Shown here: positions 13,543 to 47,447 of the stretch, piece by piece
Layout of the letters: each line of letters opens with the position of its first letter
Numbering within the stretch: the first letter of the stretch is position 1
Origin: a virus
Strand: one strand, 5' to 3'
Length of the DNA stretch: 64,000 nt
IMG/VR virus record: IMGVR_UViG_3300019776_000252
Location: 1-64,000 of that record
Made by a program: the position numbers and the translations under genes
Notes under the pieces: generated by a model
Told to the model about the DNA's origin: nothing
What the model saw: the letters and a program-made list of their open reading frames with translations, nothing else
Databases searched by the model: none

Positions 13543-14781
13543 TTAGGACAATGCGTAATTAGACTTCCTAATAAGTTCTCCTAGATTACTAGACAACTTC
13601 TTATACTTCAAAGGAGTTCTATACAACTGACCTAACAAGTCATCAACCAAGTCACTTTCAGCTATCTCAGCCAATACATTAATGTATGTCTGACGTAGTA
13701 CATTCATATTGTTAGCGTGACACTTGAACTCATCATGAACAGTTACAACCTCGAATGGCTTATAACTAAGCATGTATTCAACCATCTCTGCTAACTTCTT
13801 GAGATGTACTACATTGATATATCCCATGCTTTCTACTTCCAAATGAGGAAGTATTACAGCATCGGCTATACCGCTACGTTCATACTGCTTTACATAGTAT
13901 TGAACCTCTTGGCTTACACCCAGAGTAGCTGTTTCCTCACCCATAGAACGCTTAATCAGTTCAATCTCAATCAGATTAGCTGCTCTTTGAACCATCTCAC
14001 GGTCATAGTTACATCTCCGATGAATAGTTCTCAGAACATATGCATCTACTGAGTGAACCACATTAGCCACATTAGAGAGACCCTTAGCTGTACCTTCATT
14101 CTCATAGAACTCATAGGTAAAGCTAGAGTGTCCAAGCTCATCAACCTCAATACGAGCTTCCTTCTTGGTCATAACCTTAACCCTAGCGTCAAATCCATCT
14201 GGAAGCTTCCATTCATGTACCAATGCAAAGGCATTCCAGCTATTCAACAAGTCCTGTAGCAGTTCCCAAGCACCTGGAGCAACCCTAATTGCAGCCTCAT
14301 AGAAGGCATTCAACTCAGGCGTATCCTCACCAAATATCTCCTTTGGCTTGGCTTTAGAACCATAGAAACTAGTCATCAGAGCCTCCTTAGCCTGCTGCCT
14401 AGACACTCCAACAGTACTTCCAAGGATGTTTTGCATCTCGTTAGTAACTGCTGAATAGGCATCTGCACGCTTATTAGGATCTACTAGACCAGTAGCAGTA
14501 GCTCCAGCTACACAGCCTGTAAGAACAGACATAAGCTGGATACCACTACAGCAAGCATCAAAGCCTACCAAGTGACCTGTAGGCTTACCTTGTTGAGCTT
14601 TCCTCAGAGCCATTACAGCCTTCTGATACAGAGGCTTGTTATCTGCATCAACTTCAAGGCTCTCAAGCTTATCCATATTGGTTTTAACCCACTGGATACG
14701 ATCCTCAAATAGCAGCTTATCTAGGCCAAATTGATTGGCAATATCAATCAATAAATACTCGTAACCAGTAAATGTTTTCAT
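13543..14781 (-). CDS. RNA polymerase II subunit 2 (N4 gp16-like)
   Basis: Motif A GFDACCSGIQ, motif B RQQAKEALMTSFYGS, ANVVHSVDA, motif C VHDEF. Confidence 0.95.
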   Translation of the reverse strand: MKTFTGYEYLLIDIANQFGLDKLLFEDRIQWVKTNMDKLESLEVDADNKPLYQKAVMALRKAQQGKPTGHLVGFDACCSGIQLMSVLTGCVAGATATGLVDPNKRADAYSAVTNEMQNILGSTVGVSRQQAKEALMTSFYGSKAKPKEIFGEDTPELNAFYEAAIRVAPGAWELLQDLLNSWNAFALVHEWKLPDGFDARVKVMTKKEARIEVDELGHSSFTYEFYENEGTAKGLSNVANVVHSVDAYVLRTIHRRCNYDREMVQRAANLIEIELIKRSMGEETATLGVSQEVQYYVKQYERSGIADAVILPHLEVESMGYINVVHLKKLAEMVEYMLSYKPFEVVTVHDEFKCHANNMNVLRQTYINVLAEIAESDLVDDLLGQLYRTPLKYKKLSSNLGELIRKSNYALS

Positions 14782-14789
14782 AAAACCTC

Positions 14790-15023
14790 CTATTTATGTA
14801 ATAACAGCTTAATATTTAACTCTTTAGGTATTTTTATATACATTGGTTTCCACCAACGCATTCCACCATCAACATCCAGATCTACTATCCACCACTTAGT
14901 TACATTGTGATGAAACTCAGCAGCAGGGTTATATAACCAAGTACCTTCAGGATATGAATTAGAAGCTGGAACTTGGTCATACTTATTAACCTCACCATCT
15001 GGTTTAAATACTATGTATTTCAT
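14790..15023 (-). CDS. Hypothetical protein
   Basis: Trp-rich 77-aa ORF with AAGGA SD. Confidence 0.6.
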   Translation of the reverse strand: MKYIVFKPDGEVNKYDQVPASNSYPEGTWLYNPAAEFHHNVTKWWIVDLDVDGGMRWWKPMYIKIPKELNIKLLLHK

Positions 15024-15178
15024 GATTTATCCTTGAGTTGATTAACTCCCATTGCCTTTAAATACTCTTCCCTAGTTTTTAACTCTGGATATCCACATTT
15101 AGGGCAAGCAGGAACATATCTACCGTAGAACTCATAAGACCAGAAGCATTTACCGCAGACATTACTATTGAAGCTCAT
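15020..15178 (-). CDS. Zn-ribbon protein (52 aa)
   Basis: MSFNSNVCGKCFWSYEFYGRYVPACPKCGYPE...; ATGA overlaps with RNAP1 and the next gene. Confidence 0.65.
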   Translation of the reverse strand: MSFNSNVCGKCFWSYEFYGRYVPACPKCGYPELKTREEYLKAMGVNQLKDKS

Positions 15179-16074
15179 GGCATACCCTCAATTAATTCCT
15201 CATTGGCTAATTCCACCATTGCTTTCTTAAATGGAGCACCTTGAGTATTAACGTGATAACCCTGAGAGTAAATTCTTCCTCTCTTATCTACCTTATGGGT
15301 CAGATAGAACCTATTATTCTGTTGAGCTAACAAGGTATAAACCTTATAAGACTGCTTCTTAAAAGCATTCCATTGCTCAACTTTCTCTTGAGTATCTAAC
15401 TCAAATGTAGGTTCTTCTTCGTAAGTACTCAGATAAGCTGTATCCAGCTTAAGAGCTACTTTATTCATAGTATTAAGAACATCAAGACACAGATCACCAC
15501 CATGATGATTACCTGTACCAAGCATCACACTGTCATTAAAGGACAGATATCCGCTTGAATAGTTATTCTCTAGATCCAATGGTTCACACACCATAGGAGG
15601 TAAATAACCACTATTCTCAATCCTAAATACTAATGAATCAGGGAATGGCATTCTGCTAATTACCATTAACGATGCCATCTTATTAGCCTTAATAATGTCA
15701 AATACATCTGTATTACAGAGTATCGCCATTAACTCAGCCACAGTTTTAATACTATCTGCACGATCTGAGAATCCCAATCTACCAGCCATTTGAGCAGTAA
15801 CAGAGGTAAATAACTCTTCCTTGGTGCAATAACTAGCACCAATAAAGATACCTAATACTACCTCTTGAATATCTAGTGTCTTAAGCTGATCTATTCTCTT
15901 GGCTTTACTGTCATAGTAACTACCACTTAGATAATCTTGAACAAGGCTAATACCTTGCTCAATCTTCTCCTGATAGTTATCAATAATGAACTGCTTGATA
16001 TCTCTATCAATCAACTTCCTACTAAAGTTCTGTTCATTTGTTTCTTGCCAGATAATGTCTCTCATGGTTTCCAT
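15175..16074 (-). CDS. RNA polymerase II subunit 1 (N4 gp15-like)
   Basis: PPMVCEP, SGYL, FYLTHKVDKRGRIYSQGYHVNTQG (DxxGR motif). Confidence 0.95.
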   Translation of the reverse strand: METMRDIIWQETNEQNFSRKLIDRDIKQFIIDNYQEKIEQGISLVQDYLSGSYYDSKAKRIDQLKTLDIQEVVLGIFIGASYCTKEELFTSVTAQMAGRLGFSDRADSIKTVAELMAILCNTDVFDIIKANKMASLMVISRMPFPDSLVFRIENSGYLPPMVCEPLDLENNYSSGYLSFNDSVMLGTGNHHGGDLCLDVLNTMNKVALKLDTAYLSTYEEEPTFELDTQEKVEQWNAFKKQSYKVYTLLAQQNNRFYLTHKVDKRGRIYSQGYHVNTQGAPFKKAMVELANEELIEGMP

Positions 16075-16076
16075 GA

Positions 16077-16442
16077 TTACTCCTTAATAACAACAAATAC
16101 AGTCTTACCCTGTTTCTTCATGTAATTAATCATGTGCTCAGTGCCTTTGGATTTACCATCCCAAAAGGCAATAAGTCCATCTGCGAAGTCACCCATTTCT
16201 TGGTTTCTTACATATCCAGCACGTTTACCGTACTTAGCCCAATTAGCAGGGAACTCATGTACCTGAATACCGTGCTTATGAGCAAACATATAGCCAAGTG
16301 CATCTGCACCTCTAGCCATTCCACTAACAATAGATACTGTCTTATCAGCCAATTCAGTATCATGAATGGCATAGATAGCTCGTACCATCAAGTCATAGTC
16401 ATCGAAGTCTCTACTACCAGCAATAATCAATTTGTAGTCCAT
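16077..16442 (-). CDS. SLOG/DUF2493 (YspA-like) protein (N4 gp14-like)
   Basis: IIAGSRDF, VSGMARGAD, AGYVRNQEM, AFWDGKSKGT. Confidence 0.88.
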   Translation of the reverse strand: MDYKLIIAGSRDFDDYDLMVRAIYAIHDTELADKTVSIVSGMARGADALGYMFAHKHGIQVHEFPANWAKYGKRAGYVRNQEMGDFADGLIAFWDGKSKGTEHMINYMKKQGKTVFVVIKE

Positions 16443-16496
16443 ATCAATTCCTTTGTCTGTCTATTAGCCACATTACTGTACTTATATACAGTAAAC

Positions 16497-16516
16497 CCAT
16501 AGCAACCACGAAGTGG
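16497..16516 (-). promoter_or_regulatory. vRNAP hairpin promoter P4 (drives SLOG-RNAP II operon)
   Basis: Template (+) strand CCATAGCAA-CCAC-GAA-GTGG. Confidence 0.85.
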
Positions 16517-16529
16517 CAAGACACGAAAG

Positions 16530-16556
16530 AAAAAACATAACTTCCCCGAAGGGAAG
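16530..16556 (-). terminator. Terminator with UUCG loop after the micropeptide
   Basis: CTTCCC-CGAA-GGGAAG plus A-tract. Confidence 0.75.
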
Positions 16557-16563
16557 CCATATT

Positions 16564-16629
16564 TCAGTCGAAGTACACATCGAGTTCCATATCGAAGTAC
16601 TCAAACTCATCGTCAATAAACAGGAACAT
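16564..16629 (-). CDS. 21-aa acidic/aromatic early micropeptide MFLFIDDEFEYFDMELDVYFD
   Basis: ATG with GGAG SD; only plausible ORF between promoter P3 and the terminator. Confidence 0.7.
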   Translation of the reverse strand: MFLFIDDEFEYFDMELDVYFD

Positions 16630-16655
16630 AGGAGTCTCCAAGTAAGGCAGGATTG

Positions 16656-16675
16656 CCATTACAACTGCGAAGCAG
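16656..16675 (-). promoter_or_regulatory. vRNAP hairpin promoter P3
   Basis: CCATTACAA-CTGC-GAA-GCAG (contains the GCGAAGC mini-hairpin). Confidence 0.85.
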
Positions 16676-16687
16676 GATGTAGGAGAT

Positions 16688-16724
16688 AAAAAAAGATACT
16701 AGTAAACCCGAAGGTCTACTAGTA
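16688..16724 (-). terminator. Terminator with UUCG loop after the gp2-like gene
   Basis: TACTAGTA..CC-CGAA-GG..TACTAGTA plus A7. Confidence 0.75.
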
Positions 16725-16732
16725 GTGCTGGA

Positions 16733-17005
16733 TTAGTCCAGCTTAAAGCCCACTTGGGACTTCTCATCTGCCAAGCGGAAATCAGCAGTCAATGCTGCCA
16801 ATACCTTTTGGACACGAGTGGGATCAGCTTTGAGCCAATCAATCAATCCCTTCTCTGCGACATTAGTGTCACGCAAGGGAATTGCACCGAATTTCTTCGG
16901 CTTACCTGTAACGCTGTCAGGCAGATACAAGTTCATGAAAGCAGATGCTTTCCAGTTAGCATTTTGTTGAGCAGATGCTTGATTGTTTTCGATTTGAAAG
17001 GCCAT
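16733..17005 (-). CDS. Probable N4 gp2-like ssDNA-binding RNAP II activator
   Basis: Start MAFQIEN (GGAG SD); WKASAFMNLYLP...GAIPL motif; second early gene. Confidence 0.65.
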   Translation of the reverse strand: MAFQIENNQASAQQNANWKASAFMNLYLPDSVTGKPKKFGAIPLRDTNVAEKGLIDWLKADPTRVQKVLAALTADFRLADEKSQVGFKLD

Positions 17006-17052
17006 TTGAGTACTCCAATATAGATGTTGAGATGAACATACGATATGTATGT

Positions 17053-17072
17053 CCATAACAACCGCGAAGCGG
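17053..17072 (-). promoter_or_regulatory. vRNAP hairpin promoter P2
   Basis: CCATAACAA-CCGC-GAA-GCGG. Confidence 0.87.
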
Positions 17073-17242
17073 AATATAGGAGAGCGATAGAGTATCGGGA
17101 ATATATCGGTATTGGAGAGAGATATAGATGGTATATGGTTGGAGTTATAAAGTGAGTGAATACTATATGCTGAGTCGTATAGTCCTACTCTCACCAATAA
17201 CCTGAGAGTTAAATCTTTCTACTTAATAAACTGACTATCTCA

Positions 17243-17276
17243 GTGTGTAGTTGTGTGTAATGGTATTAAGTGTGTA
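17243..17276. repeat. Three GTGTGTA direct repeats
   Basis: Copies start at 17243, 17253 and 17270. Confidence 0.6.
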
Positions 17277-17279
17277 GTT

Positions 17280-17315
17280 AAAAAAAATAGGCTACTACTC
17301 CGTAGAGTAGTAACC
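17280..17315 (-). terminator. Terminator with UACG loop after the first early gene
   Basis: TACTACTC-CGTA-GAGTAGTA plus A8. Confidence 0.78.
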
Positions 17316-17322
17316 AGTGATG

Positions 17323-17514
17323 TTAGATCTTGATACCAGATGCTTCTTCTAATGCTTTCTTCTTGCTTAGACGCTCTGCTCGTGCTTCCTCTGCGAATGA
17401 TGCTGCTGTTTCTTCAGACCATTCTGCAAGGTGATTAAGAGCTTGTGCTGCTTTATTAGTAGCTCCGAAGATAGTAGCTAGTGCATCCCAGAGAGCTTGT
17501 AGTGCTTTACCCAT
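17323..17514 (-). CDS. First early gene, gp1-like amphipathic helical protein
   Basis: GAGG SD; lies between P1 and a terminator; position equals N4 gp1. Confidence 0.7.
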   Translation of the reverse strand: MGKALQALWDALATIFGATNKAAQALNHLAEWSEETAASFAEEARAERLSKKKALEEASGIKI

Positions 17515-17548
17515 GATAAACCTCGTATATATACAGTTCGACAGTGAA

Positions 17549-17568
17549 CCATAACAACCACGGAGTGG
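17549..17568 (-). promoter_or_regulatory. vRNAP hairpin promoter P1
   Basis: CCATAACAA-CCAC-GGA-GTGG. Confidence 0.87.
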
Positions 17569-17783
17569 GTATGTAGATAAGAATTCTTATAGATTTAGAC
17601 CCAGGGGGGGTGATTGATATTTTGGAAGTCCAAACTGTAAGTACTACATCAGTACCCATTTTATTTTTTCTATAAAAACCTGTGCCTATTTTTTAAGCAA
17701 AATATTCTCTATATTAATGATCACTTTTATCATCTAATAGATCATGCTACTATATAAGCCCGATAACCTAACTAAGGACTTAT

Positions 17784-18089
17784 ATGAAGACACTCCACAA
17801 TAGCGATGTATCTGGTGCTAGGGTTAATGTCCCTGATATCAAGGTAGTTGGTAATGGGGATACCTTTCAGCTTATCTGTAAAGCATCCTCTGCTAATGAA
17901 GGTTGGATGAAGAGTACTAAGGCTATGAATATCCCTGGCTTTGGTTGCTTGGTTCAGGTTACTACTCAGCAAAGGAATCCAGATGGTAGTTATGCAGTGG
18001 CAGAAGCACTAACTACTGTAGAGGGTGCTCATGCTGTTGAAGATAAGGTTAATGGTGGTCGTAAGATCGTTGCATGGGGATTGACATGA
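17784..18089 (+). CDS. Conserved phage hypothetical protein
   Basis: AAGGA SD; KASS..EGWMKSTKAM.I...GCLVQVTTQQ motif. Confidence 0.8.
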   Translation: MKTLHNSDVSGARVNVPDIKVVGNGDTFQLICKASSANEGWMKSTKAMNIPGFGCLVQVTTQQRNPDGSYAVAEALTTVEGAHAVEDKVNGGRKIVAWGLT

Positions 18090-18442
18090 TCATAGCTATT
18101 GATTTTGATGGTACGTGTGTTACACATGAGTATCCAAAGGTAGGTGCAGATATTGGTGCTGCAGAAGTAATTAAGAAGATGTGTCTTGCTGGTCATCAGA
18201 TTATTCTTTTTACTATGCGCTCTGGTTTAGAACTGACCGCAGCTATTGAATGGTTTACTCGTAATGGGATTACGTTGTATGGGGTTAATAAAAACCCAGA
18301 TCAACATACTTGGACAACTAGCCCTAAGCCATACGCTCACATTTATATTGATGATGCTGCGTTAGGTGTTCCTTTGGTACATGGTAAGCATGGTCGGGCT
18401 TATGTGGACTGGGAAGCTGTAGCTAAGTTACTAGCAGTATGA
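18086..18442 (+). CDS. HAD-superfamily hydrolase
   Basis: IAIDFDGT motif I; FTMR; KPYAHIYIDD. Confidence 0.85.
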   Translation: MIIAIDFDGTCVTHEYPKVGADIGAAEVIKKMCLAGHQIILFTMRSGLELTAAIEWFTRNGITLYGVNKNPDQHTWTTSPKPYAHIYIDDAALGVPLVHGKHGRAYVDWEAVAKLLAV

Positions 18443-18822
18443 AGCCTGCTAATCGTTGGCTTGATCGAAGGGTGGCCCATGCAGGGCCATACCTTACGCT
18501 TTGTCTAAGTGAAGATGAGTTAGCTTTAGTTGGTAAGAAACTAAATCAGAATGGCTTGTATTTCCCTGTAAGTGGTGCTTTGTGTTGCACGTTTGTAAAT
18601 AAGAAGTCTGAACAACTGTGTGCTGTTGTTTCGTTATCTTCTTCTGCACAGAGTAAGAATGCAATTGAAATTGCTGGTTTGCTAGTACATGAGGCAGTAC
18701 ATGTATGGCAAGCTTATATTGAAGACATGGGTGAAAGGTTTCCAGGGGCTGAACAGGAAGCCTATGGCATACAGGCTATATCCCAAGAGTTACTGGCAGA
18801 GTACGCTAGGAGAATACAGTGA
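18439..18822 (+). CDS. HExxH-containing hypothetical protein
   Basis: LVHEAVH...EQEAY. Confidence 0.7.
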   Translation: MKPANRWLDRRVAHAGPYLTLCLSEDELALVGKKLNQNGLYFPVSGALCCTFVNKKSEQLCAVVSLSSSAQSKNAIEIAGLLVHEAVHVWQAYIEDMGERFPGAEQEAYGIQAISQELLAEYARRIQ

Positions 18823-19508
18823 CAGCATTAACTATTGATCAGTTCAAGCAAGCTTTACCGGATAAGGTAAAGAAGTCTATAAACCAAGAGTTGATAGATC
18901 AGATTAACACTACGTTGTCTGATCCTGATATGTTTGAGAGTTATAGGGATAACCTGCTTAGTTATACAAAGGTAATGGCTGATGGTAGGTTTAAGATTAC
19001 TGAGTATGTAAGTGCTGTGAAGTATGTTAGTCATAAGCTTATGGGAGCTACTAACATTGAGGCTTACAGTAAGACATTCCCCGATAAGATACTTAGGTTT
19101 AATCAGCAAGGGGTATTGCCAAAGGATATTGCTAGTTATGTCACAGCTTATAACAAGAGTAAGCTGGTTAACCTTATCTTTGAGCAGACGCTGATACCTA
19201 GTTATGTATTGAATCAGGATTTGTATCAGAGGGCTTTGAATGTGCAGGCTGATCTTATGGTTTCAGCTAAGAGTGAAAAAGTTAGGAGTGATGCTGCTAA
19301 TAGTTTGCTTACGCACTTGAAGATGCCTGAGACACAGAAGGTTGAGTTGGAGATTGGTGTTAAAGAGGATTCATCTATCGCCGCATTGAGGGCTAGTACG
19401 CTGGAGTTAGCACGGCAGCAGAGGTTGATGATGGAAGCTGGTGCTATGAATGCACAGCAGGTAGCGCATAGCAAGATTGTTATGGATGTAGAAGCTAAGG
19501 AGTTGTAA
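18819..19508 (+). CDS. N4 gp69-like protein (putative terminase small subunit)
   Basis: AVKYVSHKLMG, YVTAYNKSKLVN, VRSDAANSLLTHLK; upstream of TerL. Confidence 0.85.
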   Translation: MTALTIDQFKQALPDKVKKSINQELIDQINTTLSDPDMFESYRDNLLSYTKVMADGRFKITEYVSAVKYVSHKLMGATNIEAYSKTFPDKILRFNQQGVLPKDIASYVTAYNKSKLVNLIFEQTLIPSYVLNQDLYQRALNVQADLMVSAKSEKVRSDAANSLLTHLKMPETQKVELEIGVKEDSSIAALRASTLELARQQRLMMEAGAMNAQQVAHSKIVMDVEAKEL

Positions 19509-22102: not shown

Positions 22103-22225
22103 TTATTGAGGGGCTTCCTCAACCAAAGTGGTAGTGGTTGTCACTACGCCAGCTTCATCTTGGAAAGATTCCGACAGATAAAGAGCACCAGTCTCATCAC
22201 GGTAGTAGCATTCACCAGTTTTCAT
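22103..22225 (-). CDS. Small acidic protein (40 aa) downstream of the 899-aa gene
   Basis: MKTGECYYRDETGALYLSESFQDEAGVVTTTTTLVEEAPQ; strong GGAGG SD. Confidence 0.65.
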   Translation of the reverse strand: MKTGECYYRDETGALYLSESFQDEAGVVTTTTTLVEEAPQ

Positions 22226-37256: not shown

Positions 37257-40200
37257 ATGGCTGAAGACTACCGTGATTATTTCAATAACAAGCTTTCTCA
37301 GGAACTAGCAGCTACCTCTCAAAAGTTTGGTAGAGATACCCGTTTCGCTGATCTACAAGCAGCCACTAATGAAAAGATTGCACAACTCGGTATTCTCCGA
37401 GAGGAAGCAATTAAGCAACGGGAGATTGACAACCAATCTTGGGTTAAGAAACTTGATCTAGATCCTAATGGCCTAGCTGCTGATATTGCCAACATTGGAG
37501 CAAGTGTTTATCAGGGTATTTCCAACAATATTGTTGGTCCTACTGTAGCCCTGCCTCATACTGTTGGGGCTATTCTTGATCAAGCTCGTCTTACCTCTGC
37601 TGAACAAGAGGCTTATACCCGCTATAAGCAAAACCAAGCCACACCAGAAGACATTGCCATGTTGAACCAACGCAAGGGTGTTTACACGCCTTCTGCAATG
37701 GAACTGGCTAGGAATGCTGAAGATAATCGTAAGACTGCTACTGATATTCGAGATGCATTCAATCGGGATGAGGTTATTTACAGTGCTGATCGTAGGAAGC
37801 TATCCCAAGATCTGGGTCAAGACTTTCAATCTGCATGGGATCAAACTGGTTTAGAAAACCTGTTCACCAAAGGTAAGGAAATTGGTGGAGCAGGAGATGT
37901 TGTTTCTGGTTTAGCCAAACTGATCTATAACGCTGGTAAGGCTGCTGTTAATAATCCCGCAGCTTCTATGCAGTACATGGCAGAAAACCTGCCACAGATG
38001 TTCGTAGGTGGTGCTGGTAAAGCTGGTTCTGCAGCATTGGCTTTAACCAATGCCCAATATGGTGCTGATCTGTACTTCAAGAGTGTCCAGAAGTACCAAG
38101 CAGATAACAACGGAGCAATGCCCCCACCTGAGTTAGCTCAATCCTTGGCTTTACAAGCAGCAGGGGCTGCTGCCTTGGAACATGCAGGTGAGCTTGGACA
38201 ACTTAAGGCTGCTGGGAAGATCGGTAATGCAGCTACAGAGGCTACTAAGGCTGAAGCTACCAAAGGCTTCAAGGAAGCCATCCTAAACGCTGCTAAACCG
38301 CTTGTTCCTGGTATTAAGGCAACTGCTGCAGGTATGGCAGATGAGGCTATTACAGAAGGTGTTCAGACTTACCTTGAGGGTAATCTGGACTTTAAGCCAG
38401 CTACAGCCAAAGATATCTATGAAGGTGCTGCTATTGGTGGTATTTCTGGTGGTGGTTTGTCTGGTTCTCATAAAGTAGTCCAGCAACTCACGGGTACTAC
38501 TGAAGAAGCTATTGCTAAAAAGAAAGAAGACTTCATTGCTGCTGTTGGTTACGCTCAGAACGTAAAAGACAACAATGCTGACTTCTACCTGACTCCTGAG
38601 AATAATGATCCTGTCAAGGCTATGAAGGTCTTGTTTGATCATGCTCAGTCTGATGCAGCTACTCCTGAAACCAAGGTTCAGAACTATGCCAAAGCATTGG
38701 AGATCTTGGATCAGATGGAAAGCGAAGTTGCTAAGAAGCAATCTATCTTGGACTATGCAGGTGAGACTCGGGAAGAGTTAAACCGAGCTATTGAGAGTGC
38801 TACTCAACAGCTTCAAAACCTTGATCTAAATCAACCAGATCAAGCTAAAAAAGCAGAAGTGTTTCAAAATGCGATTGATGAACGTCAAGCCGCAATTGAG
38901 CTTCAAGACGGTGGTACAACCGCAATACAGCGTCAACAAGCGGAGGTAGACGCTAGTAATAAAAAGATCAAGACTGCAACTAACCTTCAGGTTCAGCTTG
39001 CAAACACCACGAAAGTTTTGGCTTCACAAGAGCAAGTTAATACAGATATTTCTGTAGCTAACTCTCCGGTGAATATTGCTGACCCTGCCTCTATTGATGC
39101 TGCAACAAAATCAATAGAGAGGGTAATCCAAGTGACTTATGCGTCACCAGATAAAGTGTCTCCGCAACAGGCACTAGCAATTGCAGATAACATGGACAAT
39201 GGCTTAACAGAGCCACAGCGTACATATCTAAGGGAGTTTTCCAAAGCACGTATTGAACAAAACCTACTCGAAACTACTGAGTCGGTTAATAGCACCATCC
39301 TTAATGGTTCTAAGGCACATAAAGGTGTTCTTACTTACCAAGCCCAGATTGGTGATGCATTACTGAATAACGACTTTGCTCGTGCAACTCGTTTGGTTGG
39401 TTTGCTGAGTAACTTCGCTAATGACCATACTCAAAAGGCAGAAGTTGCCACAAAAGCACTGGAACAAGCCATTGCTACCAAGCGTTCTGTGCAAGTCATT
39501 AAGACAGCAGGAAGCAACGGTACTTGGCAGATCAATACTGGTAAGCCACTTGGTCGTGATGAGATGGCTGCAATGGGTGGTGTTACAGCACATCCTAATA
39601 GCCCTAAATCTCGTGCATTGATTGCCAGTATTCCATTGGAAGCCAAGATCCTTCAATCTACTCATGCTGCTCAAGTGGCAGCTATGAACTTGAGATTTGC
39701 TGGTTCTACCGCCTCCGCTACTCCCGCAACACAGACTACGGCTACGCCTTCGTCTGTTGCTCCCGTAGCGTCGGCTGTTCCTAAAACTACAGTAGAATCC
39801 CCAACTCCCAACTCCCCTATAAATAATCAATCTGAGAACAAGTCAGAGGATGCTGCACGTACTGATATTACATCCAGTACTTCTGCAGGGACAGGCTCAC
39901 TCCGTGAGCCACTGACAGATCCAGTTAAAGATACAGCTAACCTAGCTAAACACCAGCCCCTGGTTTCAGATCGTAAGCTGGAAGTACTGAACGATGTTCA
40001 GAGAGCCAAGCTAGAAGACGTTCTTCAGAAGCTTGCTGGTTACTACGGTAATCAGATCAATAGCGTCACGTTCTACATCCAAGACAAACTGGATGCCAAC
40101 GGTAAGCCTGAACTAGCTGCAGCCTTTATTGATGACAAGGTTCAAGCTATTGGCTTGCATTCTTCTCTATTCGGTACTTTTAACCTTACAAGTGTCACTG

Positions 40201-43200
40201 ATGAGGCTATCTTTGAGTTTGTTGTTGCCCATGAGCTAGGACACGTTAAAGACAAAGAGACTGCTTATGCCTCTGAGAATGCAGAAGAACTCTCTTATGG
40301 TGGTATCGTCTATACTGAAATTTCCAAGGCTCTGAAAGCCAATCAGCTAAGTCCTCTGGCTCAGATGGCCTTTGGGCAGATCTTTAAGGCTGGATTCAAA
40401 GGTAATGTTCCCAAGGAAATCTTCGCTAATCTTCATGCTTTTGCAAGCATCCAACCTGACCTTCTAAAGAAAGAGCTTCCCAATGGATACCAATTCATCC
40501 AAGGACCAGACACAGCAACAACCGGAAACCAAGGAACAACCGAAACAACTCAAGATAGTTCCGTTTCCAGCGTATCTGAACGACCTGCTGACACAAAATC
40601 TACCGAGTCAACAGACACCGGAACAGAGTCCCAAACAGGAAAGCTAGACGCACTAGTAGGTGATAAGTCTTCCAAGAATTCACCGTTTATTGAACGTAAC
40701 CTGCTTGTAGATCATGTTACTCAGCAGATTGGTGATGAGACTAATCTCAACTATCAACGTCCTCTTGTAGCAGTAAAGAACTTCTTTAGTACTGCAGCAG
40801 GTAAGTTCACAGACTTCCTTGCTAAAGGTAGCTACACAGCTTCTGAGAAACAGAATGCTGCTCTTGGCTTGTTCAACTCTATTACTCCTTTGTGGAGCAA
40901 GATCATTAATAATGATCTGGTTGAGGAAGATAAGAAGTTTCACTACACCACACCATTTAACTGGCTCATCAAGAAAGAAGGCAATAAGCTTCAACTTGAA
41001 GAGAACGTTACTACTGCAATGGTGTATGCAGCACTGAATGCTCTTACTGAACTAGATAGTAAAGGCATCTACAACACCCAAGAAACTATTGCTTCTATGG
41101 TTGGTTTGTCTTCTGTAGCAGGCATTACTCCACAGATGACAGCTACCCTTACTGATGTGGGTATGCGAGCCAATGTATTCCGTAATGCTATTGGTTCTTC
41201 AGCCATGCAAGCTCTTGGCTTCAAGGTAGATAAAGATGCTCCTAAGAACTTAGAAGCACGTCTTGAAGCTGGATTTGCAGGACGTATTGAGAAGCTGCTT
41301 ATTGATCGTGGCTTGGTAGAAGTACGGGATATCCCCGCTGCTGAGATGCAGCAGATTGAGAACTCTGTAGCTTTATTTGAAGGACGTAAAGCTCGTAGCT
41401 TTGATGCCGGTACTAAGTTCAAATTTATCCGTCTAAAGCGTCAAGGAGATAAACTACATCCAGATGTAACTAATCTCTTGGATTCTTTGAAGGGTAGTAA
41501 TGGCATTCTGGATAAGCTGTTTGGTGTTCAATCCAACATCAAATATCCTAGTCTTACTCCATTGAACTATGTTCAAACCAAAACAAAAGGCAAACAAGAA
41601 GTACCAAGTCTTCTTGCAGAAGTGAACCAGCAAAACCAACAAACAAAGAACTTTGTTCGTGAGGATTTGTGGCGTGTTCTTTCTGGTTTGGATTCCTCTG
41701 TTATTGAAGGTTTGATTGGTATTGTTCCTGAAGGTGCAGATCAGCCAGTAGCTAATGCCCTGTCTACCAAAGCCAAGAATGATGGCTTGCGTAGGGAATG
41801 GGCGATTGCTACCGACTTTGTAAACGACATTCTTCTTAAGACAGCAGAGGGCTTCAATCAGCCTATCTACTTCTCGTATGACACATGGATTCAACAACGT
41901 GTTGGTCTTGATGGTTCTTTGAATCCACAATCCAGCAAGATCCATCGTGCATTGATGACCAAGGAAACTTGGAAGACAGAGATTGATCCCAACAACCTTG
42001 GCAAAGTAGCTTTCATGAAGCTGTTTGTTGCAGAGTCTTTCGGTGTCAAGATTGATCGGATGGACCCAGCTAATTCTTTAGAAAAGTTTAGTAATAAGCT
42101 GGCTGATCCTGTAATTGCTAAGGCAATTGACGATATTCAAGCCAACATCTATGAAGGTACTTCATTAGATTCTGAAAGCCAAGACAATCTACTCAAAGCA
42201 GTTCGTAAAGGTGGTGAGAACCTAGCGACAATGGATGCTATTGTTGCTATGGCTCACTTGCAGCAAGCTATTGCTACTAATAAGCCTGTTACTGTAAGTC
42301 TACCTGCTAGTGTTGACGGAGTTACCAATGGTCCTATTCTTGGTTTGATTCTGTTCAGTGCTGGCTTGGATGTTAAGTCTTTGAACTATCTAGCTGAGAA
42401 AGGCGGTATCTATACCGATGCTTCTAATGCAGAAGACTTTCCTGAATGGAAAGACAACCCAGCTAATAAAGATCTGTACGAAACAGTAATGGATGACGTA
42501 TTGAAACATGTACGTAAAGCCATTGAAAGTGGTCAAGTACCAGTAGAACTAGCTAAGGCTGTTAGCTTCTTCACAGGAGATCTCCGTGAGAAAGACAAGC
42601 CTACTTCTATTAGTTCTGCAGCACGTAAGATCATCAAGCCACCAGTAACTGAATCAGTATTTGGTGCTGGAGTGTCTACGTCTATTGAGCACATGGCTTT
42701 GAATTTTGTTGACTCTGTTTATGCCAAGCTTGCAGAAGTCAACCTTATGGACGAAGCAGACAAAGCCGAAGCAGTAAAACACATTAATTACTTACTCTAT
42801 ACAGGTGGTTCAAAGCTTCGTTTGAATGCTTCTCAGAACCTTAATGATTCGTTCTTACAACCAGAAATCAATGCTATTAAGCAGGCTTTTGGTGACTTGT
42901 TTGGTGAAGCAGTTACCCAAACAATGGAAACACAATTCAGTGCTTTCAAGGAATCTACTCGTACCTATAACCAGTTGGCTTCTACTCTTAACAGCATCTA
43001 TGAAAACATCTATGTTGTTAAGCGCCAAGAGTTTATTCAAGAGCTTATTGCTAAGGAAAAAGCAAAGCCTGGTACTGGAATGCCTTATGGATTGGGTAAA
43101 GTTGATCCCAATACAGGCAAACCAATTAAGGACAAGGAAACCCCTTTACGTGATCTAACAACCAAGGAAGAGGAAGAGCTTGCTAAACGACTAGCTCCTG

Positions 43201-46200
43201 TATTCCCTATTGTTCAGACACTGCTCTCTAGGGAAAGCAACCAACCAAACGCAGGATTGCGTATTGCTTCTATTACAGAAGATCTTAAGCTAAATCCTTT
43301 GTATCGAACAGCTACCAAGTTCAAGAATGTAATCACTAGTAGTGATTCCAGCTTGTGGGGAAAACACAGCCTAGTAACTCAAAGTTTTACTGAGACTTTT
43401 GAAGATCCGGGTGTAGCAATGCTTCCATTGCTTATCCACTCTTTGGATAGCTACATCTCTCACACGACACAGAAAGACATGGAACTATTGAATGTCCATG
43501 ACTCTGTTGTTGGTGGTTTAAACACTATTGCAGAAGCCAGTGAAAAGATTAACAAAGTTACCTTTAATGCTCTGCTGAAGTTCTCTCCAATGGGTGAGAT
43601 GTACCATTCACTAGAGAACATGATTACTGGTTTATCTTTGTTAAAAGACCGTAATGAACTGACACCAGAGATTCTTAGCAAGCTAGGTAAAGAAGGCTCT
43701 TTTGTTAAGAAGCTGATGAATACTCATGCAGCAGTACGTGAAGCTGATACAGCCAAACTTAATGCAATGCTTAAGTGGGTTTCTGTTAATCAGTATGCTC
43801 TTACTGGTGGTGCTTACACAGTTACCGAGGAAGATACCAAGGCAGTAGAGAAAGCTTTGGAAGCTACCAAAGAGCCTATTAATCCTTTGATCTTGCAACG
43901 TGCTCGTGATCTGGACAAGTTGTTTAAGGCTAAGGATACCCAAGACAACAAGCCAAAGGCAGACAACGCACCAATATTGCCACCAAGCAATACCTACAGT
44001 ACTCATGACATTTTTAATGCCATTGATACGAATGGTGTTAGCCCTACCTTTAGGGATCATCTAAGCAAGATCTTGACTGACATTGTTGAGCGTCTTCATG
44101 GTTCATTTGGTACTCTTACCGAAGCCATGATGAAAGACACTCCATTGGCACCAATTGATGTGTTCTCTACCGCTATGGCTACTGGTGTAGCTCCCTTTGC
44201 TTCTGAACTGGTTGCTTCTGGTTTCAAGTTTGACAACCAAAGCATGTTTGTTGCAGAACAGATCGAAGCCACAGTACGTAGCTTGATCAGCAATGGCAAC
44301 CAGAACAACTCCGTTGTTTACAACGAACTAGTTCGCTTGGAGAAGGAAACTCGTCAACGTCTTAAGGTTCAAGACTTCCATAAAGGTGACTGGAATACAG
44401 CAAACCAACAGGAAAAAGACAAGGCACAAGCCTTGTACGACTACCTTTTTAACAAGGTAGATACCAATTACTTGGCTAGGTTTGCTGCTCTTGGTTTGGC
44501 TCATGAAGACTTCAATAAGCTCTTGCAAGTTCCAACCAAGTTGGCTCCCAAGATCATGGAAGACAAGACTATTGCAGGTGTATTGGGCCGAGTCTTCCAG
44601 AAGATTACTCAGTTGATCAACGGTAAATTGACCAACACAAAGCCAGGACAAGCAGCAGACCTTAAATTGAATCTGTTGGTTCGTCAATTGGTAGAGATTG
44701 AGAACAAACGCAAAGTCATGTTGACTATGAAAGATACCAGCTTGGTTTCATTCATGGATAAGACTATGCGTGCTACTCGTAAGGGTGCTAGAACTCAATT
44801 TGCCAACGTATTGAACAGCAGCATGTTCATGCATAACAAGAACGCAGTTATTAGTGCTGGTTCTAGGTTTGCCAATGCTATTGCGAATAATCAATTGAAG
44901 TACTGGTTTAAGGGAATGCAAATCCTTCGCAACCGTACTATCAAAGATATTCAAGGTACAGGAGCATCAATACTTGGTGAGATGAATGGTCCAGCAATGT
45001 CTATTGCTACTATCTTCCGTCTTACTAAGACGTTGGAAAAGCATCGTAAAGACGCTATTACTTTCACCAGTAAGGCAGTAATTGAGTCCTTTGTGAACAA
45101 AGGCAAAGACCTAACGACAAGCGCAAAAGCAAGCATTAGCAATGTGTTGCTTCGTTCCGGTGCTTATGTCTTGCAATCTAAGTACGACATGAAGCAGTTG
45201 GAAACATTGCTTCGTGATACCACTGCTTTGAATAAAGAAATCCAAAGCCATGAAGATCTCTTGAAGCAAGAAGCAGGAACAGACTATGGCTACGTACAGG
45301 CACAGTCAGCAGCTTTGGGTTATTTCTTGGTAACAGGACAATCCACAATTGAGTACCTACTTAAGAACGCAAACAACATTGCTAAGTTGGCAGGTACAAA
45401 GAATTATGGAAAATTCTCCCCCGCCCAAGAAAAGAAAGTAACTGAATTGGTAGATGTGTTGACCAGCTTGTACGCACTTCGGTACAACACAGCCACAGCA
45501 CGTAACGAAGTAGCAGACGTATTGGGCAAAGAGAACGCACGAACAGACGAAGACCACGGTATTCGTATGGTGTTTGCCCAGCATGAGCAGCTAGAACTGG
45601 ATGCTAAGGAACGTCTGTTTGATGGCTCTGAGGCATTGATGCAGAAGGGATATACCCCAGAGATTTATAACCCCCACACAGACATTCAAGTAGTGGAAGC
45701 AGGCATGGGTAAAGACCTAGAAAATCTTGGCTACACCAAGGTTTCTAAGCTTGGTTTAGATCCTATGGACCCAGCCACATCCTCTAAGGAAATGTACGTT
45801 CTTAGAGATGGTGGTTTGCTTCCTTGGCTTTCTGGCATCTTTTCTTACACCAGTATGAAGGCCAAGGGAACGCAGGTACATAGTGGCTATAACCAACAGG
45901 TGCATAACCAGATCATGTTGGATAAGCAGAATGCTATGGCTAAGTACACAGGTACATTTGACCCTACAAAGGTAACTGCTAACTACACAGTTCCTCTGTT
46001 GAATTCCAACATGTATCCGGTCAACTTCCAATACATGATGACCAGTGATACCAAAGATACTTTGCTTGAGCGCAATAACGACATGGCATCTATCTTGGGT
46101 ACATTGGCAGGTAATACCTACGACAAGGAAGCTTCTAGCGTACAGAACAAAAAGGCTGTGGAACTCTTCTATAAAGAGTTTAAAGCTAACTACACAAAGC

Positions 46201-47447
46201 ATCCTGATGGCTTTATGGCTGTTAGTGCTACTAGTTCTATTCCTGAGCTACGTGAAATCTATTCAATGCTTCCTAAAGCCACCAAGGATCACATTCGTGA
46301 AATCTGGGGTAAGGATGAAATGCTTATTGATGTAGCCAATCTGGATATTGCTTTTGGATATCGCAAGAAGAGCCTGTCTACAGTGTTTGACAAGGATGAA
46401 GCAGAACGTAACTCACTAGAGAAGCTGTTCCACTTCGTAGTAACCAGAATGCTCTATGACTATGCACGAGTAATGAAGCACATGTCTGTAGCAGATGCAG
46501 AAACATTCTCTAAGAGTGCTGCTGTACGTGTTCGTAGAGCAGAGAACATGTGGCAAGCTCTGGTTCACGAAGTTAAAGATATCTATGTAGTAAAGAACAT
46601 TACTACTTCACTGGATAACATCAAGAGTAACTACATCATGCTGATGTTGTACGGTGTTCCAGTGATGGATATTGTTAAAGATACTACTGTAGCTTGGATT
46701 GAAGCAAGTAAGTATCGTAAGACTACTGAAGAAGTAGCCTTACTTAAGGCTAAGTTAGCTAAAGGCTACACACAAGGTAGTACTAAACGTATTGAAAATG
46801 AGATTGCTCGTCTTGAATCTAACCTTAGTAATAGTCCTGTGCATGAGCTAATGGTTGCTGGCATGATGCCAACAATTGTGGAAGATGTTGGTGCTGTAGA
46901 TGATCCTTATTCTTATAAGGCTGGTTTCATCCATAAGATGGAGAAGTTCACTAATAAGATTAATCCACATGTTAAAAATGTGGCTAAACATGTCTACATG
47001 GCCCACGACACACCACAATATAAGGTGTTAAGCCAGATCACTCAATTGAGTGACTTTGTTGGTAAGTATGCTCTGTATAAGCACCTTACTACCCGCAAGC
47101 ACAACCCTATTGCTAAGGATGTTGCTATGCAGGAAGTATCAGACGCATTTATTAACTACGATATCCCAATGCATCGAAATCTCCAATATTTGGATGACAT
47201 GGGTTTTAGCATGTTTAATAAATACTTCTTGCGTATTCAGCGTGTAATTCGTGGTCGCTTTATTCACGCTTCAGGAAAGATGGCTGGAATGATGTTCTTT
47301 GAAAAGAACGTAACCAATCTGCCTACTATTCTGGATTCCTCTGTATTGCTTAGGTTTGGCAATAATCCATTCTCTCTAGGAGCTTTGAATTACCCAAGTG
47401 CTCTTGGTGAGTTACCTGCACTGAAGATGGTTAGTAGCATCTTCTAA
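37257..47447 (+). CDS. Virion-encapsidated RNA polymerase (N4 gp50-like)
   Basis: 3396 aa, no Cys seen; NPQSSKIHR, motif A VDGVTNGP, motif B RKIIKPPVTESVFG, motif C NVHDS; C-terminal SDFVGKY, FINYD, FNKYFLRIQ. Confidence 0.96.
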   Translation: MAEDYRDYFNNKLSQELAATSQKFGRDTRFADLQAATNEKIAQLGILREEAIKQREIDNQSWVKKLDLDPNGLAADIANIGASVYQGISNNIVGPTVALPHTVGAILDQARLTSAEQEAYTRYKQNQATPEDIAMLNQRKGVYTPSAMELARNAEDNRKTATDIRDAFNRDEVIYSADRRKLSQDLGQDFQSAWDQTGLENLFTKGKEIGGAGDVVSGLAKLIYNAGKAAVNNPAASMQYMAENLPQMFVGGAGKAGSAALALTNAQYGADLYFKSVQKYQADNNGAMPPPELAQSLALQAAGAAALEHAGELGQLKAAGKIGNAATEATKAEATKGFKEAILNAAKPLVPGIKATAAGMADEAITEGVQTYLEGNLDFKPATAKDIYEGAAIGGISGGGLSGSHKVVQQLTGTTEEAIAKKKEDFIAAVGYAQNVKDNNADFYLTPENNDPVKAMKVLFDHAQSDAATPETKVQNYAKALEILDQMESEVAKKQSILDYAGETREELNRAIESATQQLQNLDLNQPDQAKKAEVFQNAIDERQAAIELQDGGTTAIQRQQAEVDASNKKIKTATNLQVQLANTTKVLASQEQVNTDISVANSPVNIADPASIDAATKSIERVIQVTYASPDKVSPQQALAIADNMDNGLTEPQRTYLREFSKARIEQNLLETTESVNSTILNGSKAHKGVLTYQAQIGDALLNNDFARATRLVGLLSNFANDHTQKAEVATKALEQAIATKRSVQVIKTAGSNGTWQINTGKPLGRDEMAAMGGVTAHPNSPKSRALIASIPLEAKILQSTHAAQVAAMNLRFAGSTASATPATQTTATPSSVAPVASAVPKTTVESPTPNSPINNQSENKSEDAARTDITSSTSAGTGSLREPLTDPVKDTANLAKHQPLVSDRKLEVLNDVQRAKLEDVLQKLAGYYGNQINSVTFYIQDKLDANGKPELAAAFIDDKVQAIGLHSSLFGTFNLTSVTDEAIFEFVVAHELGHVKDKETAYASENAEELSYGGIVYTEISKALKANQLSPLAQMAFGQIFKAGFKGNVPKEIFANLHAFASIQPDLLKKELPNGYQFIQGPDTATTGNQGTTETTQDSSVSSVSERPADTKSTESTDTGTESQTGKLDALVGDKSSKNSPFIERNLLVDHVTQQIGDETNLNYQRPLVAVKNFFSTAAGKFTDFLAKGSYTASEKQNAALGLFNSITPLWSKIINNDLVEEDKKFHYTTPFNWLIKKEGNKLQLEENVTTAMVYAALNALTELDSKGIYNTQETIASMVGLSSVAGITPQMTATLTDVGMRANVFRNAIGSSAMQALGFKVDKDAPKNLEARLEAGFAGRIEKLLIDRGLVEVRDIPAAEMQQIENSVALFEGRKARSFDAGTKFKFIRLKRQGDKLHPDVTNLLDSLKGSNGILDKLFGVQSNIKYPSLTPLNYVQTKTKGKQEVPSLLAEVNQQNQQTKNFVREDLWRVLSGLDSSVIEGLIGIVPEGADQPVANALSTKAKNDGLRREWAIATDFVNDILLKTAEGFNQPIYFSYDTWIQQRVGLDGSLNPQSSKIHRALMTKETWKTEIDPNNLGKVAFMKLFVAESFGVKIDRMDPANSLEKFSNKLADPVIAKAIDDIQANIYEGTSLDSESQDNLLKAVRKGGENLATMDAIVAMAHLQQAIATNKPVTVSLPASVDGVTNGPILGLILFSAGLDVKSLNYLAEKGGIYTDASNAEDFPEWKDNPANKDLYETVMDDVLKHVRKAIESGQVPVELAKAVSFFTGDLREKDKPTSISSAARKIIKPPVTESVFGAGVSTSIEHMALNFVDSVYAKLAEVNLMDEADKAEAVKHINYLLYTGGSKLRLNASQNLNDSFLQPEINAIKQAFGDLFGEAVTQTMETQFSAFKESTRTYNQLASTLNSIYENIYVVKRQEFIQELIAKEKAKPGTGMPYGLGKVDPNTGKPIKDKETPLRDLTTKEEEELAKRLAPVFPIVQTLLSRESNQPNAGLRIASITEDLKLNPLYRTATKFKNVITSSDSSLWGKHSLVTQSFTETFEDPGVAMLPLLIHSLDSYISHTTQKDMELLNVHDSVVGGLNTIAEASEKINKVTFNALLKFSPMGEMYHSLENMITGLSLLKDRNELTPEILSKLGKEGSFVKKLMNTHAAVREADTAKLNAMLKWVSVNQYALTGGAYTVTEEDTKAVEKALEATKEPINPLILQRARDLDKLFKAKDTQDNKPKADNAPILPPSNTYSTHDIFNAIDTNGVSPTFRDHLSKILTDIVERLHGSFGTLTEAMMKDTPLAPIDVFSTAMATGVAPFASELVASGFKFDNQSMFVAEQIEATVRSLISNGNQNNSVVYNELVRLEKETRQRLKVQDFHKGDWNTANQQEKDKAQALYDYLFNKVDTNYLARFAALGLAHEDFNKLLQVPTKLAPKIMEDKTIAGVLGRVFQKITQLINGKLTNTKPGQAADLKLNLLVRQLVEIENKRKVMLTMKDTSLVSFMDKTMRATRKGARTQFANVLNSSMFMHNKNAVISAGSRFANAIANNQLKYWFKGMQILRNRTIKDIQGTGASILGEMNGPAMSIATIFRLTKTLEKHRKDAITFTSKAVIESFVNKGKDLTTSAKASISNVLLRSGAYVLQSKYDMKQLETLLRDTTALNKEIQSHEDLLKQEAGTDYGYVQAQSAALGYFLVTGQSTIEYLLKNANNIAKLAGTKNYGKFSPAQEKKVTELVDVLTSLYALRYNTATARNEVADVLGKENARTDEDHGIRMVFAQHEQLELDAKERLFDGSEALMQKGYTPEIYNPHTDIQVVEAGMGKDLENLGYTKVSKLGLDPMDPATSSKEMYVLRDGGLLPWLSGIFSYTSMKAKGTQVHSGYNQQVHNQIMLDKQNAMAKYTGTFDPTKVTANYTVPLLNSNMYPVNFQYMMTSDTKDTLLERNNDMASILGTLAGNTYDKEASSVQNKKAVELFYKEFKANYTKHPDGFMAVSATSSIPELREIYSMLPKATKDHIREIWGKDEMLIDVANLDIAFGYRKKSLSTVFDKDEAERNSLEKLFHFVVTRMLYDYARVMKHMSVADAETFSKSAAVRVRRAENMWQALVHEVKDIYVVKNITTSLDNIKSNYIMLMLYGVPVMDIVKDTTVAWIEASKYRKTTEEVALLKAKLAKGYTQGSTKRIENEIARLESNLSNSPVHELMVAGMMPTIVEDVGAVDDPYSYKAGFIHKMEKFTNKINPHVKNVAKHVYMAHDTPQYKVLSQITQLSDFVGKYALYKHLTTRKHNPIAKDVAMQEVSDAFINYDIPMHRNLQYLDDMGFSMFNKYFLRIQRVIRGRFIHASGKMAGMMFFEKNVTNLPTILDSSVLLRFGNNPFSLGALNYPSALGELPALKMVSSIF

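Follow-up and report, generated by a model that had tools for sequence, protein, structure and literature searches.

A predicted early cassette of an uncultured N4-like phage joins a drc-type promoter, leader and Shine-Dalgarno sequence to a 21-codon open reading frame

In phage N4, the promoters of the virion RNA polymerase (vRNAP) are activated by the host SSB protein, and Drc or gp2 recruits RNAPII (PMC4496689). Early promoters of the N4 type consist of a stem of 4 bp or more closed by a 3-nt loop that is conserved and, on the template strand, purine-rich, and in LUZ7 the early transcripts, whose 5' ends have been mapped, start at a G located 13 to 14 nt downstream of the hairpin centre (PMC9163698). 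No viral gene of LUZ7 is more highly expressed than Drc, which accounts for up to 64% of the phage transcripts; gp01 is also among the most transcribed early genes of LUZ7, and the 2 genes jointly make up 90% of the early transcripts (PMC9163698). The unit described here shares with the gp01 and Drc cassettes of LUZ7/LIT1 and with the N4 early units the vRNAP hairpin promoter, a start, here predicted, at a G 13 to 14 nt from its centre, a short leader, a Shine-Dalgarno (SD) sequence, an intrinsic terminator and a position in the first approximately 1 kb to enter the cell, and its leader is itself of the drc type. It differs from them in that their products have 48 to 98 aa whereas the one proposed here has 21 aa, and in that this micropeptide lacks homologues. 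The unit is an extreme, lineage-specific member of the class of one-gene vRNAP early cassettes and phage microproteins, and its instructive part is its origin from the drc expression module.

The window, by which we mean the whole stretch of DNA analyzed, corresponds to the initial 64 kb of an IMG/VR virus record that is 74.7 kb long and has direct terminal repeats. It contains the gene of a 3396-aa vRNAP (37257-47447) and, on the minus strand, the genes of the 2 subunits of a T7-like RNAPII, which have 299 aa (16074-15175) and 412 aa (14781-13543, matching Pfam RNA_pol). Because it encodes both a vRNAP and T7-like RNAPII subunits, the phage is N4-like (Schitoviridae); it is uncultured and related to LUZ7 and LIT1. 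The nearest cultured phages are of the Pseudomonas LIT1/PEV2 type, with merely 45.7% identity in the small RNAPII subunit, and no near match to the early region was found in cultured phages. Distant DNA and protein searches of this region matched the SLOG gene alone. The sequencing runs containing DNA of the phage are aquatic and freshwater metagenomes, and there are no RNA runs among the runs listed for it.

The early region lies on the minus strand and extends leftward from approximately 17.6 kb (Table 1). It is composed of 4 units: promoter P1 followed by a 63-aa gene and terminator t1, P2 followed by a 90-aa gene and t2, P3 followed by a 21-codon ORF and t3, and P4 followed by a SLOG/YAcAr gene and the RNAPII genes. 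The layout of the P3 unit is the same as that of the neighbouring P1 (63-aa gp01-like product) and P2 (drc) cassettes. In these 3 cassettes, a leader hairpin begins at +1 or +2 and is followed by the SD, and the terminator is located at most 10 nt from the stop codon. An earlier reading of the window made from its letters (hereafter, the sequence-only reading) had described the P3 unit, to which a fourth promoter, P4, is added here, located 16 nt after the terminator of that unit.

Table 1. Features of the P3 unit and its surroundings, in window positions
Feature	Position	Strand	Basis or remark
Drc-like early gene, 90 aa	16733..17005	-	driven by P2 (hairpin 17072-17053), leader not drc-type
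Terminator t2 of the drc cassette, UUCG loop and T-run	16688..16724	-	22 nt before P3
vRNAP-type hairpin promoter P3	16656..16675	-	stem CTGC/GCAG of 4 bp, loop TTC, then TTGTAATGG
Predicted transcription start GG	16656..16657	-	13-14 nt downstream of hairpin centre 16670; LUZ7 rule
5'-terminal leader hairpin GGCA-AUCC-UGCC, drc type	16646..16657	-	fold: stem from transcript nucleotide 1
Shine-Dalgarno GGAG	16636..16639	-	6 nt before ATG; kept in X5; resembles SD region of relatives' drc
21-codon ORF and TGA, MFLFIDDEFEYFDMELDVYFD	16564..16629	-	SD, codon score, ATG and frame kept in X5
In-frame 12-nt direct repeat	16568..16603 (copies 16568-16579, 16592-16603)	-	spaced 24 nt = 8 codons
Terminator t3, CTTCCC-UUCG-GGGAAG, extended by A-U/G-U pairs, then U-run	16526..16558	-	base 5 nt after stop
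Promoter P4	16497..16516	-	16 nt after t3; drives SLOG/YAcAr gene (16442-16077) and RNAPII subunit genes

The 90-aa early protein appears to be an ssDNA-binding RNAPII cofactor of the Drc type. A profile built from 5 homologues weakly matches PDB 6qlc, an 'ssDNA binding RNA polymerase cofactor' (E 0.049), the protein matches PHROG 6271 (7e-7), which is labelled 'toxin', and its orthologues occupy the same place in the relatives. The presence of a P2-type leader before drc indicates that the early region has been rearranged or the gene exchanged. This Drc is just 40% to 46% identical to the Drc of contigs with a 60% to 65% identical RNAPII subunit. The product of P1 (63 aa, 17323-17514, minus strand) belongs to a conserved gp01-like family (PHROG 6483) with the motif W-x-E-E-x-A-x-x-F-A-[DE]-E-[AQ]-R, which forms the first cassette in nearly all relatives. 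The SLOG/YAcAr gene (16077-16442, minus strand; DprA-like, 'GTP-binding domain') opens the P4 operon and immediately precedes the RNAPII subunit genes, an arrangement shared by many relatives and by many unrelated phages (1124 records).

To locate early promoters, the genome was searched for a motif composed of a 4-bp stem, a T(T/C)C loop and a downstream TTG..ATGG. Exactly 4 sites were obtained in the whole 74.7 kb, all on the minus strand and within 1.1 kb of each other in the early region: P1 (17568), P2 (17072), P3 (16675), and P4 (16516). The P3 hairpin (CTGC-TTC-GCAG, 16675-16665), which presents the loop as GAA on the template strand, has a stem and a loop of the same motif as P1, P2, and P4 and fits the definition of a vRNAP hairpin promoter. 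It lies at most 1.1 kb from P1 and upstream of the RNAPII subunit genes, is co-oriented with the early genes and is located at the genome end that enters first. By analogy with LUZ7, the P3 transcript would start at the GG at 16657/16656, and TGG is the part of the promoter motif that is conserved across relatives. A 31-aa version of the ORF, starting from an ATG at 16659, was considered and is unlikely because this ATG lies within the promoter consensus, upstream of the presumed start GG. It is also contradicted by the relatives, in which the base preceding TGG varies (CTGG, GTGG) so that no ATG is formed there.

At the other end of the unit, t3 consists of the GC-rich stem-loop and the U-run that define an intrinsic terminator; terminator sites were predicted at 16565-16532 and 16555-16543, in agreement with the fold. 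Overall, 6 terminator-like sites were observed in 14000-19000 versus 2.7 expected. From the predicted start, the transcript would measure approximately 123 to 132 nt. The promoter, the GGAG before the ATG (16629-16627), the reading frame and the UUCG terminator described in the sequence-only reading were therefore all found, and its proposal that the ORF has its own immediate-early unit stands as regards an autonomous early promoter-to-terminator arrangement, with the approximately 110 nt given for the transcript requiring correction. Given this architecture, the P3 unit is very probably a real early cassette.

In addition, the folds of all 4 predicted early RNAs place a stem-loop at the very 5' end, from nucleotide 1 or 2 onward (17550-17516, 17054-17020, 16657-16623, and 16498-16464, minus strand). 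The 5' hairpins of P2 and P4 are clearly better than those of shuffled sequences (z = -4.3 and -2.4, respectively). These 5' stem-loops look like a general device to protect the 5' end of the early mRNAs.

The origin of the P3 leader was examined by comparison with the drc genes of 18 relatives, in which the transcript from a hairpin promoter opens with GGCAA(A)TCCTGCC and runs on to an SD region of the form ..CTGGAG..ATG. Similarity to the drc leaders of these 18 relatives gave a z of 18.5 for the P3 leader, 5.7 for that of P2, -1.1 for P1, and -2.0 for P4, and the value of P2 comes from its SD part alone. The z of 18.5 identifies P3, its leader and its SD as a drc expression module. What is new here is that the P3 leader and SD match the module that 18 relatives place before drc. 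In this phage, drc itself is located one cassette upstream behind the P2-type leader, and the drc-type module precedes the 21-codon ORF. The simplest origin would be that the module was copied by local duplication or rearrangement. A search for the exact leader-SD 23-mer in viral contigs gave no match. The body of the ORF was also compared with drc of the same phage and of 19 relatives by local nucleotide alignment, and the scores were within the range of shuffled sequences except for one z of 2.65, which is unremarkable among 20 comparisons. The possibility that the micro-ORF is a collapsed or truncated copy of drc was rejected because its body retains no similarity to drc. If P3 retains the strength that the drc module has in LUZ7, the micro-transcript would be very abundant.

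We then evaluated whether the 21-codon ORF is coding. As the sequence-only reading had reported, the peptide MFLFIDDEFEYFDMELDVYFD contains 8 Asp/Glu and 7 Phe/Tyr residues and no Lys, Arg, or His, and the ORF ends at a TGA (16566-16564). That 21 codons stay open has a chance of approximately 0.3 and is unremarkable alone. A codon log-likelihood trained on 40 long genes of the phage assigned 0.219 bits/codon to the ORF in its frame versus -0.76 and -1.48 in the +1 and +2 frames, which score like the off-frames of real genes. A score of 0.219 corresponds to the 20th percentile of 21-codon windows of real genes and is reached by 0.2% of off-frame windows. Of the 664 small ORFs lying out of frame with long genes, 8.6% score as high (p approximately 0.09 alone), as do 2 of the 23 that are preceded by an SD, namely the micro-ORF and a 40-aa ORF (22103-22225). 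The ORF thus has the SD spacing and the start codon of a gene together with gene-like codon usage in the proposed frame alone. Its composition (at least 30% acidic, at least 20% aromatic, and at most 1 basic residue, thresholds that were chosen after the peptide had been seen) is the sole case among 3982 SD-preceded ORFs of 12 to 50 aa on both strands of the window and 56 related loci. The in-frame 12-nt repeat encodes EYFD and VYFD, and its copies can partly base-pair with each other in an internal RNA hairpin. As a stop codon, TGA is unexceptional here, ending 10 of the 40 genes of the phage; read-through into an in-frame 38-aa ORF (16560-16444) was rejected because of this and because the product would span t3 and P4. 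The micro-ORF protein is absent from a 15-billion-protein collection, and gene callers have therefore missed it, which agrees with the earlier statement that it is too short for them.

Two closely related sequences allowed us to follow the unit over short distances. One of them (X2) derives from a run of the source's own study and is identical over the P3 unit, and the other (X5) comes from another study performed six years later and is approximately 95% alike. The Drc homologue P0001 appears to belong to the X2-type variant, with which it shares the T63S change at 16819. In the X5 contig, the stretch 16733-16635, which comprises t2, P3, the leader and the SD, presents 1 difference in 99 nt. 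This difference is at 16679, 4 nt upstream of the P3 stem, and the promoter is otherwise identical. Past the SD, X5 has 86 diverged letters, of which 30 are visible, corresponding to the first 8 codons. The spacer between SD and ATG is changed at 3 of its 5 positions, and the ATG is at an unchanged distance. Because the ATG is kept at the same distance despite the change of the spacer, the start and the frame survive in a fast-changing stretch. The X5 ORF begins M-Y-F-L-L-I-D-D instead of M-F-L-F-I-D-D; the differences within these first 8 codons are an indel of one codon, a synonymous change and a Phe-to-Leu replacement. This amounts to a difference of approximately 12% plus the indel, which is like that of the non-coding spacers (11 changes in 17124-17174, many in 17570-17619) and far from the slower rate of the SLOG gene (3 changes in 172 nt). 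Along the X5 early region, the segments 17046-17123, 17526-17569, and 16635-16733, which contain promoters, leaders and terminators, form conserved islands with 0 to 1 change, and the spacers just upstream of the promoter hairpins (17124-17174 and 17570-17619) are approximately 20% changed and carry small indels. Of the conservation in relatives that the sequence-only reading had suggested checking, the start and the frame are seen over the first 8 codons of X5, and the 56 related loci contain no homologue.

These 56 loci comprise 29 viral contigs selected by their small RNAPII subunit (41% to 65% identity) and 27 metagenome loci selected by the 90-aa protein. One-gene cassettes with genes of 48 to 98 aa are the norm in them. 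No homologue of the peptide was found in any of these loci, no match in PDB or PHROGs, and no paralogue within the genome. A phmmer search with the 31-aa form against 1.84 billion protein representatives gave no match either. In the relatives, a single promoter comes straight after the drc terminator and leads into the SLOG gene or a different one, with no mini-unit in between, and no such unit stands behind the drc homologue of PEV2, the closest cultured type. Among the relatives retrieved, only the near-identical ones have the unit, which appears to be confined to its lineage.

The peptide has a net charge of -8 and 13 hydrophobic or aromatic residues, and contains no Gly, Pro, or polar uncharged residue. 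Residues 8 to 21 alternate between acidic and hydrophobic, giving a strand-type hydrophobic moment of 0.49 that is reached by 1.7% of shuffles, and the helical hydrophobic moment is unremarkable. This alternation suggests that the peptide could dock as an extended strand or amphipathic element on a basic or hydrophobic surface. By analogy with the N4 system, in which ssDNA-binding proteins take part in early transcription, ssDNA-handling proteins could be reasonable targets, although this is speculation. The sequence-only reading had proposed that the peptide possibly mimics the C-terminal tail of SSB or ssDNA. The tip of SSB is likewise short, acidic, rich in aromatic or hydrophobic residues and unstructured-looking; however, its motif is DDDIPF with a C-terminal Phe (PMC5872125), whereas the peptide ends in D-V-Y-F-D and has no Pro and no Pro-Phe carboxy-terminus. 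In addition, none of the phage proteins of the genome was found to have an acidic-aromatic tail that could be imitated. The sequence therefore does not support the SSB-tail proposal, and a specific mimic function of any kind seems improbable for this peptide.

Acidic proteins that mimic DNA are well known in phages and include T7 Ocr, T7 gp5.9, and T4 Arn, which are folded proteins of approximately 50 to 120 residues, often dimers, that display phosphate-like arrays of charges. The peptide shares with them a predicted early expression, a strong negative charge and the lack of basic residues, but 21 residues cannot alone form such a scaffold and no PDB sequence matches it. Functional phage products of this size do exist: T4 Stp has 26 aa, and the arbitrium signalling peptides are processed from longer secreted precursors. 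Neither is related in sequence to the micropeptide, and we know of no dedicated vRNAP cassette for either of them.

Altogether, with moderate confidence we favour the view that the unit is a lineage-specific immediate-early cassette of one gene that probably makes a 21-residue peptide. The 21-aa ORF is the most credible product of the unit considering its SD, its in-frame codon usage and the ATG and frame kept in a diverged relative, and we regard the case for translation of the peptide as evenly balanced. According to this model, the injected vRNAP would initiate at the hairpin promoter P3 and produce a transcript with a protective 5' stem-loop, the GGAG and the ATG, which would end approximately 125 nt further on at the UUCG-capped intrinsic terminator. 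The drc promoter-leader-SD module would have been re-used before an unrelated 21-codon ORF, probably after a local duplication or rearrangement. The mRNA would most likely be translated into an aromatic-rich peptide with a net charge of -8 and a strand-like amphipathic segment (residues 8 to 21), which may act stoichiometrically; it would dock into a groove, basic or hydrophobic, on a protein that handles nucleic acids and belongs either to the host or to the phage's early machinery. A more specific version, which we consider a long shot, is that of a minimal phage effector that is produced abundantly from the drc-type promoter in the first minutes and blocks such a groove, and that arose by a near-de-novo gene birth through recent capture of the module. 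The groove could belong, for example, to SSB partners, to a nuclease or a defence sensor of the host, or to Drc or RNAPII of the phage itself.

The same observations could be produced by a transcribed relic, in which a duplicated drc promoter-leader-SD-ATG segment was left behind drc and the ORF is accidental, with no or negligible function. We judge this unlikely but deserving of serious weight. A relic would explain why the leader and SD are homologous to drc modules while drc sits upstream behind a P2-type leader, why the unit is absent from all 56 related loci, and why the ORF start of X5 diverges about as fast as the spacers; 21 codons are easily open by chance, and the SD and the ATG may have been inherited from the duplicated 5' end of drc. 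What it explains less well is the absence of detectable similarity between the ORF body and the drc genes of this phage and the 19 relatives, so that the ORF is not simply a truncated drc, and the conservation of 98 of 99 positions across P3, the leader and the SD in X5, in which other intergenic spacers change by approximately 20%. Retention of the ATG behind a changed 5-nt spacer, the outlying codon usage and composition of the ORF, and an intact strong terminator next to a separate P4, which would be redundant in a compact phage genome, also argue against it. A distinctly less probable explanation, put forward as an alternative in the sequence-only reading and retained here as a rival, is that the transcript of approximately 125 nt is itself the product, acting, for example, as a regulator or as a decoy for a host RNA-binding factor or RNase, and that the ORF is untranslated. 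The fold of the unit is more stable than those of shuffled sequences (-39.9 kcal/mol, z = -3.8), but the terminator and the 5' hairpin, both common to all mRNA cassettes of the region, supply most of the folding energy. The internal 12-nt repeat makes a 6-bp stem and the GGAG pairs weakly with codons 2 and 3, which would suit a structured RNA; against this, the RNA body is the least conserved part in X5, where the ATG and frame are kept, and the codon-usage signal appears in one frame alone. Searches of 16350-17700 against Rfam 15 detected no family at E up to 1, and the longest complementarity to other phage transcripts was 11 nt, within the 11 to 12 nt of the shuffles, leaving this alternative with no antisense target. 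Putative sRNAs have been reported in LUZ7, albeit at a late stage; they are abundant, shorter than 250 nt, located between orf69 and orf70 with no annotated gene, and lack coding potential (PMC9163698), whereas the P3 unit belongs to the early phase and combines a coding-like frame with an SD and an ATG.

A cis-acting role, in which the unit tunes the traffic of polymerases into the RNAPII operon or the entry of the DNA, is in our opinion very improbable. It could operate by read-through of t3 from P3, by translation-dependent masking of t3 or by providing an extra loading site for the vRNAP. The distances would permit it, since t3 is within reach of a ribosome at the stop codon (5 nt) and P4 follows 16 nt later, but the same stop-terminator distance is found in the P1 and P2 cassettes and thus reflects general compactness. 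Early transcription helps to bring the N4 genome into the cell (PMC4496689) and terminator read-through is widespread in LUZ7 (PMC9163698), which would be in line with this role; however, the operon already has a dedicated promoter in P4, relatives manage without such a unit, and the fold shows no alternative antiterminator structure. Returning to the one-gene cassette, if its ORF is translated it would be among the smallest phage genes with their own promoter and terminator, expressed by the injected polymerase just as infection begins, and unseen by gene callers. The early regions of N4-like phages behave as sets of exchangeable promoter-leader-gene-terminator cassettes, and new genes could plausibly arise when the module of drc, the dominant early gene, is copied in front of a very short, new ORF. 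Were a target confirmed, the peptide would provide a minimal inhibitor, and if the unit is just a relic, it would caution against inferring function from well-formed micro-units.

Small genes of other kinds are found at this position of the early region in the relatives, the slot surrounding drc being a hot spot of tiny, variable genes. In one locus, a 62-aa early ORF with 34% acidic and 21% aromatic residues is part of the operon downstream of drc (L046:1637-1825), and in view of this composition it could be a functional analogue of the micropeptide. Several relatives have small acidic proteins encoded by the last gene before the drc promoter (L003:3219-3344, 41 aa; L007:1134-1322, ORF of up to 62 aa). 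Family searches with the acidic/aromatic 62-aa protein of L046:1637 and the acidic 41-aa protein of L003:3219 produced no informative match. The small acidic, transmembrane and helix-turn-helix-like genes of the relatives form a P2 operon that this phage does not have. Other examples are a 48-aa Cys-rich, zinc-ribbon-like one-gene cassette upstream of drc (L029:2481-2690) and a 34-aa hydrophobic ORF that is the first gene after drc (L014:2560-2720). Elsewhere in the window, the 40-aa ORF at 22103-22225 (minus strand), located directly downstream of an 899-aa gene, is preceded by an SD and has the top codon score (0.476) among the small ORFs of the genome, and is probably a real small gene.
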